NCBI GenBank assembly: GCA_964621215.1 | Contig: CAZULF010000002.1 | Coordinates: 1-50,725, forward strand | Origin: an uncultured Legionellales bacterium | GTDB lineage: Bacteria > Pseudomonadota > Gammaproteobacteria > UBA1113 | Direction of reading: 5' to 3' | DNA: 50,725 nucleotides | Part shown: positions 45,746-49,180 of the stretch, piece after piece | How the letters are laid out: every line of letters starts with the position of its first letter | Position numbering within the stretch: the first letter of the stretch is position 1 | Translations under genes and position numbers: made by a program | Notes under the pieces: model-generated | Seen by the model: only the letters and a program-made list of their open reading frames with translations | Database searches by the model: none | What the model was told of the DNA's origin: nothing

Positions 45746-45821
45746 GCTGGAATAGCTCAGTTGGTAGAGCAACTGATTCGTAATCAGTAGGTCGGAGGTT
45801 CGACTCCTCTTTCCAGCACCA
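45746..45821 (+). tRNA. tRNA-Thr (anticodon CGT)
   Basis: Manual cloverleaf: GCTGGAA/TTCCAGC acceptor, anticodon stem ACTGA/TCAGT with loop TTCGTAA, T-arm GGAGG-TTCGACT-CCTCT, and an encoded ACCA end. Confidence 0.93.
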
Positions 45822-45855
45822 AACTTAAAAGGCCCCCTAAACGGGGTAGAGCCAA

Positions 45856-46782
45856 TTAATAACAATCTAACAATGTCTGTTGTAATTTATCTTGTTCACA
45901 ATTGTATGGATTGCGTATCCAATCTTTAACAGATATAACAGTGTTATTTATAAATGCATATTCCTCTTTTACATTTATAGTATTAAATGGTATTTTATTT
46001 TTTGCATTAGGGTTATGAATCATAATAAAGTCATTAAAAACATCATGATCTGGAGAAGCATTTTTTCCTGAAATGATAACGGCACTTAGTGAAGCAAATC
46101 TCTTATCTAAAAAGATGTCTTTTCTTATTAAACTATCATTATGTTTTTGAATTGCGTCTTGGAGTGTTAAATATAGGGTATCATCAACTTCTTCTCTTGG
46201 ATCAATACTAAATCGGATGGCTGGAGGACCAAATGGAAAAAAGGTACCTATAATGTGATGGGGAATTAAATTAAAGCCTATTTTATTATAGTAAGAAATA
46301 AGATCACTAAAAGGAATCTCACCATATAAGCCAATTACGATAATAAATGGATCTGTTTTTTCAATTATACCCGTACTTAAATAGGCTTTATATCGTGCTT
46401 CTTTTTTAGGAGCTCCAATCATTTTTTCATGTAATGCATTTATTATCATTAATTGAATTTTCTGTATATCTGGAGTATGAACTCCCCCGTTTGTTTTGTC
46501 TTCTATGCGGTTTTCGTCAGATGAAAATTGATTTTGTGGAGTTGTACACTCAATGAAAATTTTTTCTTCGCCTCTATGAAGAAGAAAGTCAGGACTTGCT
46601 TTATTTTTTCGACTTGGAGAACTTAGATGAAAATCACTATTATTTTCGGCTAAAATTTTCGCAGTCAAAATTTCTGTATATTTAGTTGAAATGTACTTTG
46701 GAGATTTATCTAGTTTTCTAAGAAAATCTTTATCTAACACGTGAGAGTAGTTGGGATACCATTCATTTATTCGGTTTAACAT
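45856..46782 (-). CDS. hypothetical 308-aa protein, possible PD-(D/E)xK-like N-terminal nuclease fold
   Basis: The ATG at 46782 has a strong AAGGAG Shine-Dalgarno. The segment TEILTAKILAE...SPDFLL...KIFIECTT resembles an E...D...ExK-type core with the Lys replaced. I recognise no family. Confidence 0.6.
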   Translation of the reverse strand: MLNRINEWYPNYSHVLDKDFLRKLDKSPKYISTKYTEILTAKILAENNSDFHLSSPSRKNKASPDFLLHRGEEKIFIECTTPQNQFSSDENRIEDKTNGGVHTPDIQKIQLMIINALHEKMIGAPKKEARYKAYLSTGIIEKTDPFIIVIGLYGEIPFSDLISYYNKIGFNLIPHHIIGTFFPFGPPAIRFSIDPREEVDDTLYLTLQDAIQKHNDSLIRKDIFLDKRFASLSAVIISGKNASPDHDVFNDFIMIHNPNAKNKIPFNTINVKEEYAFINNTVISVKDWIRNPYNCEQDKLQQTLLDCY

Positions 46783-46831
46783 ATTTATCTCCTTTTGAAT
46801 ATAGTTAAGATGAGTACTTAAACATGGGGGC

Positions 46832-46923
46832 AAATAGCGAGGTAGCCCTCATTACACGCGTGATAATTTCGTTTTCTAACTTAATATCGAGACGCGTTTT
46901 AATGGGGGCTACCTCGCTTATTT
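46832..46923. repeat. long inverted repeat (about 23-bp arms, about 45-nt loop) between the two uncharacterised islet genes
   Basis: aaatagcgaggtagccctcatta (46832-46854) pairs with taatgggggctacctcgcttattt (46900-46923), with 1 indel and 1 mismatch. Confidence 0.8.
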
Positions 46924-46966
46924 TACATAACAATTTCATTAAGTAAGAAACATTTCCTAATAATCT

Positions 46967-47323
46967 TTACTGGCTAGATGGTTTACTCGATCTTAGACCA
47001 AGTGGAACAGAGAACTTGATACGATTGACCGCAGAGTTTTTTACAGTACTATTTGCCCCAATATTAGCTTCGAGGCCAAGTACTTTTACTCCAGCTTTGC
47101 CTCCATTGTTACCAGTAGTTTCAGCAGTAACTGCAACATCGAATTCAATCTGTTGGAAGTAGCGCCCCACAATGTGATCGTATGATACGTCAGTTTTTGT
47201 CGAGGTGCTTTTATTAAAAGGGAAGCATATTGCATCGCCTTGTTCCTTCAGTTCGATTCTAGCAGCGTCAACCCCATTTATGATAGAAACCAAAACACTG
47301 TTTATAAATTCTGTTAATTCCAT
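46967..47323 (-). CDS. small protein resembling the trypco2 (trypsin-co-occurring domain 2) family
   Basis: 118 aa. An N-terminal helix MELTEFINSVLVSIINGVDAARIELKE is followed by IEFDVAVTAETTGNNGGKAGVKVLGLEANIG...RIKFSVPL. This matches my recollection of the trypco2 pattern (helix, then beta strands around a GGxxG(V/I)K segment). Confidence 0.5.
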   Translation of the reverse strand: MELTEFINSVLVSIINGVDAARIELKEQGDAICFPFNKSTSTKTDVSYDHIVGRYFQQIEFDVAVTAETTGNNGGKAGVKVLGLEANIGANSTVKNSAVNRIKFSVPLGLRSSKPSSQ

Positions 47324-47532
47324 AATAAATCCTCATTATAATTAATAGATAAGGGATATATGAGGGCAAAGTTTTATTTTGCAAGCGGAAAATGTAATTT
47401 AAGTAATTAATTGGCAGCGACGTAGTAAGGGATTATCAGATTTTGCCGGAACAAAATGCTACTAGCTTTGGTTAGAAGATCGTGCGTTAAATAACAAATA
47501 TATCTTGAGGATCTTGTTTTCATTAATATGAG

Positions 47533-48519
47533 CTACATCACCATTAAATCATTATTCAGCGATATAAAAATATTTTTGCTGAGCGAATTAAGATTATCCA
47601 ACGCTTCTTCATAGGTTGGTTTCTTTTCGCCATAAACCATAGCTTGCATAAAATCACTCCAGTTTTTTGCCCACAGGGTATTTCCCTTGAGCGTTAATAA
47701 AGCACTCTTAATTTCCTCGACTGGATTCTTAGCATAATCTTTATTTTGATTTTTATAACGACTAACATCTTCATTGATAAGTCTGCTAATCAGTGTGTAA
47801 ACATCCTTATTCATGGCTTCTTTAGTCTTAATACAATAAAGATCGTAGATATGTCTCACTAATGTCGGATCAGAAAAAGCATCTGGTTTTCGATTGGCAT
47901 TTGCTGCTCTTCTGGTAAAAGCAACCCATTTTTCTGCGGCTGTTTCACTGACAGCAACACATGCCAACATTCTGCTTGGGTGCTCGGCGATATCGCCTAA
48001 AACTTGCTGAATTAAAGTTGTTATAGGCAATGATGAAATAGGTAGCTTTGATGTGACAACCATAAATTCAAGCTGTATATGCGGTCTCAGTACTAAATTT
48101 TTTTCATATAGCGAAGGATACAACAATGCAAATTGGAAATAATTACCAGCATCTCTAACCTTAAAATCCTCATCGGACACTGAAAACCCTAATCGCTTAA
48201 AGTGTGTAATTAGTTGCTCACGAAACTCACGTAATTTATTTCGTCGCTGGTTCAGACTGAGTTTTTCTCCCGCTTCAGTTAGATGAATACGAAAATCACA
48301 ATCTTCTGACATTCGTTCAACAATGCGGTGAGCCTTAGCAAGAGCAGTCCCGCCTTGAAAAACTAAGGTAAAATATTCGTTATTCAACTCTGATATTGCA
48401 TGAATAGCTCTAGTTACATGAAAATCTTTTTCAACGATGGATGGGGTATTAAGATTGAGTAAGTCGGTAGTTTCAATAACTAATGCATCTAACCTAATAG
48501 GATCATACGGAATACTCAA
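47533..48519 (-). CDS. abiEii: nucleotidyltransferase AbiEii/AbiGii-family toxin (DUF1814)
   Basis: 328 aa. FQGGTALAKAHRIVERMSEDCDFRI matches the GGTAL...R(F/M)SEDxDF NTase motif. It overlaps the upstream antitoxin gene by 17 nt. Confidence 0.8.
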   Translation of the reverse strand: MSIPYDPIRLDALVIETTDLLNLNTPSIVEKDFHVTRAIHAISELNNEYFTLVFQGGTALAKAHRIVERMSEDCDFRIHLTEAGEKLSLNQRRNKLREFREQLITHFKRLGFSVSDEDFKVRDAGNYFQFALLYPSLYEKNLVLRPHIQLEFMVVTSKLPISSLPITTLIQQVLGDIAEHPSRMLACVAVSETAAEKWVAFTRRAANANRKPDAFSDPTLVRHIYDLYCIKTKEAMNKDVYTLISRLINEDVSRYKNQNKDYAKNPVEEIKSALLTLKGNTLWAKNWSDFMQAMVYGEKKPTYEEALDNLNSLSKNIFISLNNDLMVM

Positions 48520-48928
48520 AAGGAAACTCCCTATTTTTATAGCTGACTTTTCGTCTAAAGCGTTTACCTATAATGGTAACTGGAGATGCTGGAATCTGAG
48601 TTGAGCGTCCTTCGTTATAGAGTCGTTCATATTCTGAAATAGCCCACGGTATACCCATCTTGGTGAGAGCTTCTCGCATAATTTCAATAAAACCGCGTGG
48701 TAAAATGGATTCACCTTTTCTGAATAGGGAGGGTCGTAGGGGCGCGTAAATACCATAGCCGAGACGCGCTAATCTACCTTTTTTTACAAGAGAAGATAAC
48801 GCTCGACTTAACTGCCTTTCAGAGCCGCCTAATTGAATTAAGTCACTCCGCAAAATAGCGATACTATCGGTGGACTCTATATTTTTCAATACAATATATT
48901 CAAATGAATCTTCATATTTAACTTTCAT
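48503..48928 (-). CDS. abiEi: AbiEi-family (type IV TA) antitoxin, short wHTH form
   Basis: ILRSDLIQLGGSERQLSRALSSLVKKGRLARLGYGIYA matches the AbiEi N-terminal wHTH pattern. The ATG at 48928 lies downstream of the promoter at 48959-48987, so the ORF-track start at 48997 would sit upstream of the -35. Confidence 0.72.
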   Translation of the reverse strand: MKVKYEDSFEYIVLKNIESTDSIAILRSDLIQLGGSERQLSRALSSLVKKGRLARLGYGIYAPLRPSLFRKGESILPRGFIEIMREALTKMGIPWAISEYERLYNEGRSTQIPASPVTIIGKRFRRKVSYKNREFPFEYSV

Positions 48929-48945
48929 GGTACTCACCAACCAAC

Positions 48946-49002
48946 AATGGACAATTAAAGTATATCTCTTTTTCATCGTTATGTCAAAAATGGACAATTA
49001 AA
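48946..49002 (-). promoter_or_regulatory. abiE promoter (TTGACA-17-TATACT) bracketed by two 14-bp direct repeats (putative AbiEi operators)
   Basis: The minus strand has -35 TTGACA (plus-strand coordinates 48982-48987) and -10 TATACT (48959-48964) with an exact 17-nt spacer. The repeat TTTAATTGTCCATT occurs at 48946-48959 and 48989-49002. Confidence 0.65.
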
Positions 49003-49132
49003 ATTGTTTCTAATATTTATAGGCAAAAATGGCGAATTATTGACAAATTAGGTATAAATTTACGAAAAGTATTAGAAACAAAATAGGCTATAACTCATTG
49101 AAAAACTTAATCTTTATTCCACTTGAAAACAA

Positions 49133-49180
49133 TGATTCGTAATCAGTAGGTCGGGGGTTCGACTCCTCTTTCCAGCACCA
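49133..49180 (+). repeat. attR-like partial tRNA-Thr copy (3' 48 nt)
   Basis: tgattcgtaatcagtaggtcgggggttcgactcctctttccagcacca matches the tRNA at 47 of 48 positions. Confidence 0.9.

Follow-up and report, generated by a model that had tools for sequence, protein, structure and literature searches.

At its tRNA-Thr(CGT) gene, a 50,725-nt stretch of contig CAZULF010000002.1 (assembly GCA_964621215.1, an uncultured Legionellales bacterium), the whole of which is here called the window, carries a 3310-nt block of four minus-strand genes bracketed by two direct copies of the 3' part of that tRNA gene. This block, referred to below as the islet, is probably a small, horizontally acquired defence islet resembling cis-mobilizable elements (CIMEs), without an integrase of its own, which would have been inserted by a tyrosine integrase that has since been lost or that acts in trans. 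The repeat and its geometry, the foreign composition of the enclosed DNA and the identity of its genes carry this reading, and comparable arrangements around related AbiE gene pairs were found at other loci.

Direct repeat, composition and probable integration at tRNA-Thr(CGT)

The features at the two ends of the islet, including the cores of the left and right attachment sites (attL and attR), are as follows, with window coordinates and strand.

45746-45821 (+): intact tRNA-Thr(CGT), called by ARAGORN and by the Rfam tRNA model (75.3 bits)
45774-45822 (+): direct repeat copy 1 (attL core), beginning on the 5' side of the anticodon stem and reaching 1 nt past the tRNA 3' end
45825-45853 (+): diverged extension 3' of copy 1, TTAAAAGGCCCCCTAAACGGGGTAGAGCC
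49133-49181 (+): direct repeat copy 2 (attR core), a displaced tRNA-Thr 3' fragment with G for A in the T stem
49190-49219 (+): diverged extension 3' of copy 2, presumably the original tRNA trailer

An earlier note on this DNA, made from the letters alone, had described a 48-nt repeat of tRNA-Thr with one mismatch, and the repeat was recovered as a 49-nt pair in direct orientation, with 48/49 identities (98%) and a distance of 3359 nt between the copies. The sole mismatch, A 45796 in the tRNA gene versus G 49155 in the distal copy, lies in the T stem, where the pair is kept in both variants (A-T or G-T). Counted from the sequence, the repeat covers the tRNA from position 29, on the 5' side of the anticodon stem, through to its 3' terminus, and both copies span the entire anticodon stem-loop. 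Sub-patterns of 20 and 25 nt from the repeat each occurred exactly twice in the window, with zero occurrences expected from shuffles, and no third copy of the attachment (att) core was found in the window with either of them.

Regarding the DNA beyond the repeat, 45825-45853 and 49190-49219 share 24/29 identities with one gap and a 6-nt offset, in line with the roughly 70% similarity over about 30 nt past each copy that had been seen by eye. The local alignment score of these flanks is 17; random pairs of 45 nt drawn from the window average 6.3 (sd 1.7), a fraction of 0.0008 of them reaching 17. The 45 nt located 5' of each copy show no relatedness (alignment score 7, p = 0.38), and the left edge of the identity is sharp and lies within the anticodon stem. 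A shared terminator hairpin was considered as the cause of the trailer similarity and rejected, as the trailers fold no better than shuffles (z = -1.1 and -1.6). An Rfam scan of the islet returned the tRNA only.

Integration by a tyrosine integrase is by general agreement recognized from an intact tRNA gene (tDNA) together with a displaced 3' fragment. In its form the locus matches the footprint of site-specific integration that had been proposed for it, with an intact tDNA, a displaced 3' fragment in direct orientation and a sharp edge in the anticodon stem. An anticodon-centred attP with a 3' tDNA fragment is the most frequent class in the Islander collection (2083/3919 islands; PMC4383910). 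Regarding the features by which Islander recognizes islands, the locus has an intact tRNA gene and, on the same replicon and in direct orientation, a displaced piece of that tRNA, with the crossover at the canonical anticodon sublocation, and an integrase inside the island was not found with Pfam, NCBIfam, PADLOC or PHROGs.

The islet is compositionally foreign. Its GC content is 0.345, compared with a mean of 0.416 and a minimum of 0.360 over 171 other 3.3-kb segments of the window, and its tetranucleotide distance to the rest of the window is 0.314, the maximum elsewhere among the same segments being 0.302. No other segment of the 50-kb window is as low in GC or as deviant in tetranucleotide content, and the drop in GC starts and stops at the repeat copies. 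Within the islet, the gene encoding a 308-aa protein has the lowest values (GC 0.298; GC at third codon positions, GC3, 0.18) and the other three genes have a GC of 0.37-0.40, an unevenness that suggests that the cargo may be of mixed origins.

Plus-strand open reading frames (ORFs) between the repeats are all of 59 aa or less, and the spacers between the genes measure 34-210 nt. The earlier reading of this interval as about 3.3 kb with four minus-strand genes and no recombinase held in profile searches: none of the four islet proteins matched a recombinase in the four collections named above, nor did any of ten large unassigned ORFs of the window, the other window ORFs having been judged housekeeping by eye. 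With neither an integrase nor a remnant of one, the islet therefore fits the published description of CIMEs, in which att sites are kept and the genes of integration and transfer are absent (ICEberg 2.0, PMC6323972); attL and attR are both retained, and no integration or transfer genes lie between them.

The course of events that would best account for these features is an entry of the islet into tRNA-Thr(CGT) by site-specific recombination of the tyrosine-integrase type, with the anticodon loop at the centre of the crossover. The element would have brought in its own 3' half of the tRNA and, from a related tRNA-Thr locus, about 40 nt of trailer, a copy that would now complete the gene (45774-45853), and the original 3' half and trailer of the host would have been displaced 3.36 kb downstream to 49133-49219. 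We thus infer that 45774-45853 is the element-borne copy and 49133-49219 the original host copy. If the attP of the element descended from the tRNA-Thr locus of a related bacterium, a diverged similarity of the trailers is to be expected. The integrase would have been deleted after integration or supplied in trans by another element. Persistence of the islet is probably explained by the cost of losing AbiEi/AbiEii, since the AbiEii toxin would be restrained by an autoregulated AbiEi, and by protection against phage through AbiE abortive infection together with a PD-T7-5-like protein of a nuclease family; the cargo would also include a small Pepco-like pore-forming pro-toxin that has no cognate protease nearby.

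Two origins had been suggested in the earlier note for a duplication larger than a minimal att core. Derivation of the attP from a related tRNA locus fits both the diverged extension of about 30 nt and the metagenome locus L118 described below, and accretion of successive elements found no direct support, as there is no internal third att copy.

The integration reading gains further support from the nature of the cargo, which consists of mobile defence genes, from the position of P0002, a homolog of the 308-aa protein, beside a tRNA-His gene, and from the parallels offered by the metagenome loci L101 and L118. Several points weigh against it. No empty site, excised circle or cognate integrase was found, the organism having no close relative in any collection searched, and loss of the integrase by deletion is an assumption, no integrase pseudogene remnant having been detected in the islet. 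The position of tRNA-Thr is not conserved in the nearest genomes, and the window extends 1.5 kb past attR on the right, so that an integrase or more att copies may lie just beyond its end. Finally, the 3' end of truB, the 5' end of a gloB-like gene and a terminator hairpin also bracket AbiE pairs in metagenomes, for which a single classical integrase family is not an obvious explanation.

Copy 2 might alternatively be a tRNA pseudogene fragment that arose by local duplication and has no relation to the four genes. A cargo-free tDNA fragment does occur nearby, in the form of an exact 41-nt copy of the 5' part of tRNA-Ser that lies 173 nt upstream of its gene. However, the compositional anomaly coincides exactly with the interval between the two tRNA-Thr copies, their geometry is that of att sites, and the arrangement recurs with related cargo at other tRNA genes (L101 and L118), all of which makes this explanation extremely unlikely.

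Predicted defence and toxin genes of the islet

The cargo appears to consist of three phage-defence or toxin modules, encoded by the following features.

45856-46782 (-): gene encoding a 308-aa protein, a putative distant member of the PD-T7-5/PD-T7-1 nuclease-type defence family (PADLOC), with its start assigned from an AGGAG ribosome-binding site
46836-46918 (-): long extended hairpin between the genes for the 118-aa and 308-aa proteins, with 19-nt arms that are 95% complementary
46967-47323 (-): gene encoding a 118-aa Trypco2/Pepco-like small protein, assigned by Trypco2 profile similarity across its family
47533-48519 (-): abiEii, encoding a predicted nucleotidyltransferase toxin (DUF1814 family), full length (Pfam, PADLOC)
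48503-48928 (-): abiEi, encoding a predicted short antitoxin/repressor of 141 aa (PADLOC, promoter position), ORF open to 48997
48942-49039 (-): predicted abiE promoter with three TAATTGTCCATTNTTG repeats, -35 TTGACA at 48987-48982 and -10 TATACT at 48964-48959

The defence-like character of the cargo and its AbiE pair, both recognized in the earlier note, were confirmed with PADLOC, in which AbiEii matched with E = 8.5e-92 (profile positions 7-305 of 307) and AbiEi with E = 9.6e-31. AbiEii also matched Pfam PF08843 (E = 9e-31, 108 bits, cut-off 22.5) and carries GG[T/S] and DxD-type motifs, and AbiEi matched Pfam AbiEi_4 at E = 4.9e-4 with 20.6 bits, under the cut-off of 25. The PADLOC match identifies the gene upstream of abiEii as an AbiEi of the winged-helix DNA-binding type. 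The most likely start of abiEi is ATG 48928, and the gene overlaps the start of abiEii by 17 nt. Judged by these matches the pair is intact and represents a putative toxin-antitoxin system. The closest AbiEii elsewhere was found in the metagenome scan at 59% identity; relatives on plasmids share only about 33% identity, and none were found in IMG/VR. No metagenome locus was found that joins AbiE with the gene for the 118-aa or the 308-aa protein.

The abiE promoter is near consensus, with a 17-nt spacer between TTGACA and TATACT (48987-48959), and the TAATTGTCCATTNTTG repeats, also written TAATTGTCCATTGTTG, include one over the -35 element and one over the transcription start. The same motif was present in at least one copy 5' of abiEi at 24 of 42 related metagenome loci and as two copies, at about -25 and -70 of abiEi, at 14 of the 42, with a spacing of 33-47 nt between the members of a pair; the background rate of the motif is 0.02 per 200 nt. 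Because the motif is conserved 5' of abiEi in unrelated contexts, the promoter repeats were assigned to AbiE regulation, where they likely form the operator of a short AbiEi subfamily. The possibility that these three 16-nt repeats near attR are integrase arm-type sites was rejected on the same grounds.

The remaining two genes, listed as unknown in the earlier note, can now be placed in families, one Trypco2/Pepco-like and the other a probable distant relative of PD-T7-5. The latter had been read as a 325-aa ORF, the start of which is really ATG 46782 behind an AGGAG site, giving a protein of 308 aa. This protein matched the PADLOC profile of PD-T7-5 with E = 2.8e-6 and 24.7 bits (residues 60-238 on profile positions 77-233 of 346) and phrog_8571 with E = 2.3e-8. 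An exhaustive HMMER search retrieved 331 distant relatives, and of the aligned relatives 40/40 matched PD-T7-5 (best E = 9.5e-24) and 39/40 matched PD-T7-1, both of which are listed as PD-(D/E)xK nuclease defence systems from Vassallo et al. 2022 (PMC10952713). Residues D65, E78 and K120 are conserved over the 40 aligned sequences, and a C-terminal IHNPxAxNP motif is conserved in the family. The protein itself had no match in PDB or Pfam and no relative on plasmids, and its AlphaFold model, built from a 2-sequence alignment, reached a pLDDT of 35.

Only one homolog with more than 50% identity to the 308-aa protein was detected in 5.8 billion proteins (P0002, 53%). In the metagenome locus L083 (1-9322) the gene for P0002 starts 70 nt past the 3' end of tRNA-His(GTG), inside which the contig begins, and is followed by a Schlafen/AlbA_2-HATPase gene and then by a complete Wadjet JetABCD system. 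A second copy of the tRNA-His end was not found within 11 kb in this locus. From these neighbours it appears that P0002, too, sits in a tRNA-linked defence island.

Regarding the 118-aa protein, similarity to Pfam Trypco2 amounts to 20.3 bits, under the cut-off of 24.2. Only seven relatives were detectable, and seven of the eight members of the family have a Trypco2 match at E <= 0.01 (best E = 3.3e-5). An R-I-K-F motif at positions 101-104 is invariant in the family and is followed by a Pro/Ser/Lys-rich tail. The AlphaFold model has an N-terminal helix and beta strands (pLDDT 60); a Foldseek search with it against PDB gave nothing below E = 0.3, and PDB profile searches with the families of the 118-aa and 308-aa proteins gave no match. 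As originally defined, Trypco1 and Trypco2 are small proteins whose genes lie beside those of trypsin-like peptidases in conflict systems (PMC7159879). Under their present name, Pepco, they are described as proteins of about 117 aa that form a pre-assembled beta-barrel and become a pore toxin once a protease cuts after a conserved Ile in the C-terminal tail (bioRxiv 10.1101/2025.11.14.688446). No protease gene adjoins the gene for the 118-aa protein, which lies between abiEii and the PD-T7-5-like gene.

The nearest homolog of the 118-aa protein (48% identity) is encoded in locus L085 (528-3045) between genes for a 480-aa coiled-coil protein, with weak SMC/LmuB/JetC-like matches, and a 209-aa protein. 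A protease domain was not found in either of these neighbours, and this branch of the family may work without the canonical protease partner.

The spacer that holds the hairpin at 46836-46918, a structure of about 85 nt, has a predicted RNA folding energy of -51 kcal/mol (z = -5.1). There is no clear U-tract after the hairpin and no Rfam match to it, and it may be a terminator or a regulatory element.

Repeat-bracketed AbiE pairs in metagenomes

Comparison of the flanks of 63 metagenome loci encoding AbiEii relatives revealed at least eight loci in which direct repeats bracket an AbiE pair with no recombinase between them, a recombinase check that was not exhaustive, having been made with Pfam on the ORFs of L118, L101 and L089 only. 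In L101, a 64-nt repeat of tRNA-Leu(TAA), which begins in the anticodon stem and reaches the 3' end of the tRNA, encloses 2.4 kb with abiEi, abiEii and a 121-aa ORF only. In L118, a second copy of the last 17 nt of tRNA-Leu(CAA) and of about 150 nt of trailer, about 80% identical to the first, lies 4.6 kb downstream, and the two copies enclose a gene with an FRG domain (candidate defence family PDC-S15), two small ORFs and the AbiE pair, with no integrase; the duplication of the trailer in this locus appears to follow the pattern of the islet on a larger scale. Three further loci, L099, L133 and L089, have the AbiE pair directly beside a tRNA gene with no detectable repeat.

Other repeats consist of sequence that is not tRNA. 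About 420 nt of the 3' end of truB serve as the bracketing repeat in L137, in four copies about 2 kb apart, and the displaced truB fragment has kept an open frame with conservative changes. The AbiE pair is bracketed by 104 nt of the 5' end of a gloB-like gene in L090 (9215-11050), by a 38-nt terminator hairpin in L142 (9467-11005) and by a 25-nt repeat, intergenic in L125, in L125 (9383-10943) and L126. L138 (1-1976) has identical 123-nt ends inside abiEii, giving a closed path of 1853 nt, and holds only abiEi, abiEii and about 490 nt that finish with the 3' end of a VirB11/TrbB-like ATPase gene. A circular molecule, a tandem copy and a cassette flanked by long identical repeats could each account for this contig.

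Within L137, the last 132 nt or so of truB occur four times between 8838 and 15356, at spacings of 2090, 1895 and 2091 nt. The intervals hold the AbiE pair and then two paralogous proteins of 540 and 550 aa, an abiEi fragment abuts the fourth copy, and a HigA-like gene and a type I restriction system lie past the array. No integrase was evident by eye over the 20.9 kb of this locus.

The long, diverged repeats of L118 and L137 (150-420 nt, 80-90% identity), together with the open frame of the L137 truB fragment, speak for the possibility that homologous recombination brought in the islet, either by a single Campbell-type crossover of a circle carrying a copy of a related tRNA-Thr locus or by transfer of a pre-formed islet from a relative through flanking homology, in which case no site-specific recombinase would have acted in this genome. 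The duplication at tRNA-Thr would agree with this, as it reaches into the trailer and diverges there like two alleles of one locus. Homologous recombination is nonetheless very unlikely, as it gives no reason for the left edge in the anticodon stem that the window and L101 have in common, uninterrupted identity of only 22 and 26 nt beside the mismatch is short for a RecA-dependent crossover, and transfer of a pre-formed islet merely shifts the question to the donor.

A different process is suggested by the eight bracketed loci (L101, L118, L137, L090, L142, L125, L126 and L138) taken together, namely that pairs of short AbiEi and AbiEii are the payload of so far undescribed minimal cassettes, which would be placed at the 3' ends of conserved genes by a trans-acting recombinase. 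According to this quite unlikely scheme, the targets would be tRNA-Thr, tRNA-Leu, truB and the ATPase gene of a type IV secretion system, the gene end would be restored and a copy displaced, and repeated insertion would lead to arrays, following an integron-like logic; the islet of the window would then be one such cassette plus two further acquired defence genes. The repeats of these loci, however, vary in kind and in length (17-860 nt), some lie at gene 5' ends or terminators, and, the AbiEi operator excepted, the cassettes showed no conserved end sequence. The partial recombinase check also tells against the scheme, and most cases would be explained by decay of ordinary elements with retention of an addictive toxin-antitoxin pair.

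A stabilising effect of toxin-antitoxin pairs on genomic islands is known (PMC7725324), and it offers a simple reason for the recurrence of AbiE in stripped-down islets. The several similarly bracketed AbiE relatives suggest that an addictive toxin-antitoxin pair may be what survives when an integrative element decays.

Genomic setting, significance and relation to known systems

To the right of the islet, the first chromosomal gene is cut by the end of the window.

49233-50725 (-): right-hand chromosomal neighbour, GC 0.404, GC3 0.364

This gene runs off the contig end, the N-terminal part of its product being encoded outside the window, and its protein shares 51% identity over 486 aa with the C-terminal half of a 1016-aa Pkinase protein (7289-10339), as expected from its designation as a kinase paralog in the earlier note. 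The 1016-aa protein has a eukaryote-like Ser/Thr kinase domain. No homolog of the right-flank protein was found beyond its own contig. With a GC typical of the genome and a paralog in the window, the gene looks resident.

These properties bear on a further alternative, in which the islet would be the tRNA-proximal unit of a larger composite island, formed by tandem accretion and continuing past 50725, where the integrase and possibly a further att copy would be located. The window does stop 1.5 kb after attR, tandem integrase-less units bounded by gene ends are exemplified by the four truB 3' copies of L137, about 2 kb apart, and 125 tandem arrays are recorded among the 3919 candidate islands of Islander (PMC4383910). 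A composite island appears unlikely, however, given the GC, GC3 and paralog of the seemingly resident right-hand gene. Furthermore, the trailer after attR resembles that after the tRNA gene, as expected if the chromosomal flank begins there, and the integrases of tDNA islands usually adjoin the tRNA gene, a place that is occupied here by the gene for the 308-aa protein.

Regarding the host genome, the window contains mostly housekeeping genes, together with the eukaryote-like kinase and an ankyrin-repeat protein (17944-18888). In a scan of one genome per GTDB species, the nearest pncB genes had 82-83% identity and belonged to metagenome-assembled genomes labelled Gammaproteobacteria or Legionellales, in which the order pgm, tRNA-Ser, pncA, pncB is retained and no tRNA-Thr and nothing syntenic was found past pncB. 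The host proteins checked were all singletons at 90% clustering among about 15 billion proteins, exact-protein look-ups returned only short Logan contigs of the same organism, and no conspecific genome was found in the databases searched. Two of the Logan contigs break inside the tRNA, and no 31-mer is common to attL and attR. IMG/VR contained no sequence with this att core.

Three further features of the window were recorded. At 43320-43450, 173 nt 5' of tRNA-Ser(CGA) (43496-43586), the displaced tDNA fragment mentioned above consists of 3 nt and the first 38 nt of tRNA-Ser, copied exactly and ending directly after the anticodon, followed by a GC-rich, hairpin-rich insert of 76 nt and then by a 14-nt copy of the next tRNA bases; it has almost no cargo, and the ARAGORN intron search calls no gene there. 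At 43128-43267, in the GC-rich spacer between pgm and tRNA-Ser, the 38-nt arms of an inverted repeat, with 95% complementarity, enclose a loop of 64 nt, a structure that resembles a palindromic element of the type of miniature inverted-repeat transposable elements. Between lolD-like and fatty-acid oxidation genes, 22676-24154 encodes a 492-aa protein with ATPase_2 (archaeal-type ATPase) and DUF234 domains. This isolated gene is of a kind often met in mobile or defence contexts.

As an integrase-less, att-flanked islet, the element belongs to an ordinary and already described category, that of the CIMEs. Its significance lies in the observation that a tRNA gene can host a very small defence islet with its att scars intact and with no integrase. 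Such islets escape the island finders that depend on an integrase, among them Islander and ICEfinder, and surveys of defence-gene mobility thus undercount the class. New aspects are the Legionellales-like host for AbiE, the very rare PD-T7-5 branch, with one close homolog in 5.8 billion proteins, and a Pepco-like putative pro-toxin with no protease beside it, which makes the activation of orphans of this kind a question of interest. The features that deserve most attention are the orphan Pepco-like gene, the rare branch related to PD-T7-5 and the AbiE pairs that recur between repeats.

In comparison with Pepco, the 118-aa protein is alike in size (118 versus 117 aa), in the similarity of its family to the Trypco2 profile, in a predicted fold of a helix followed by beta strands and in an invariant Ile about 16 residues before the Pro/Ser/Lys-rich C-terminal tail, as at the Pepco cleavage site. 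Unlike in the known modules, which are defined by this neighbour, its gene is not adjoined by a gene for a trypsin-like or caspase-like protease; its Pfam score is below the gathering threshold, and its host is a gammaproteobacterium and not an actinobacterium or a cyanobacterium. The 308-aa protein resembles PD-T7-5 and PD-T7-1 of E. coli in its profile match, in a conserved GPD...E...K pattern that it shares with its 40 aligned relatives and in being encoded by a single gene in defence islands, but the match is weak (24.7 bits) and covers about half of the model, and its family has the conserved C-terminal IHNPxAxNP motif in addition.

The AbiE pair agrees with AbiE type IV toxin-antitoxin systems in its order of antitoxin then toxin, its overlapping genes, a full-length AbiEii with nucleotidyltransferase motifs and promoter repeats that are consistent with the negative autoregulation described for AbiEi, and differs in that its AbiEi is a short form of 141 aa, plasmid relatives of which are annotated as DUF6088 by NCBI, and in that its predicted operator consists of direct repeats about 43 nt apart. 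With CIMEs and decayed tDNA islands the islet as a whole shares the tRNA gene with its displaced 3' repeat, the anticodon-centred att site, the foreign composition and the lack of integrase and transfer genes. No parent integrative and conjugative element or integrative and mobilizable element with the same att site is known, and the islet is set apart from described CIMEs, which are mostly from Firmicutes (Streptococcus), by its very small size (3.3 kb), by a cargo of defence and toxin genes only and by its host, an uncultured Legionellales-like gammaproteobacterium.

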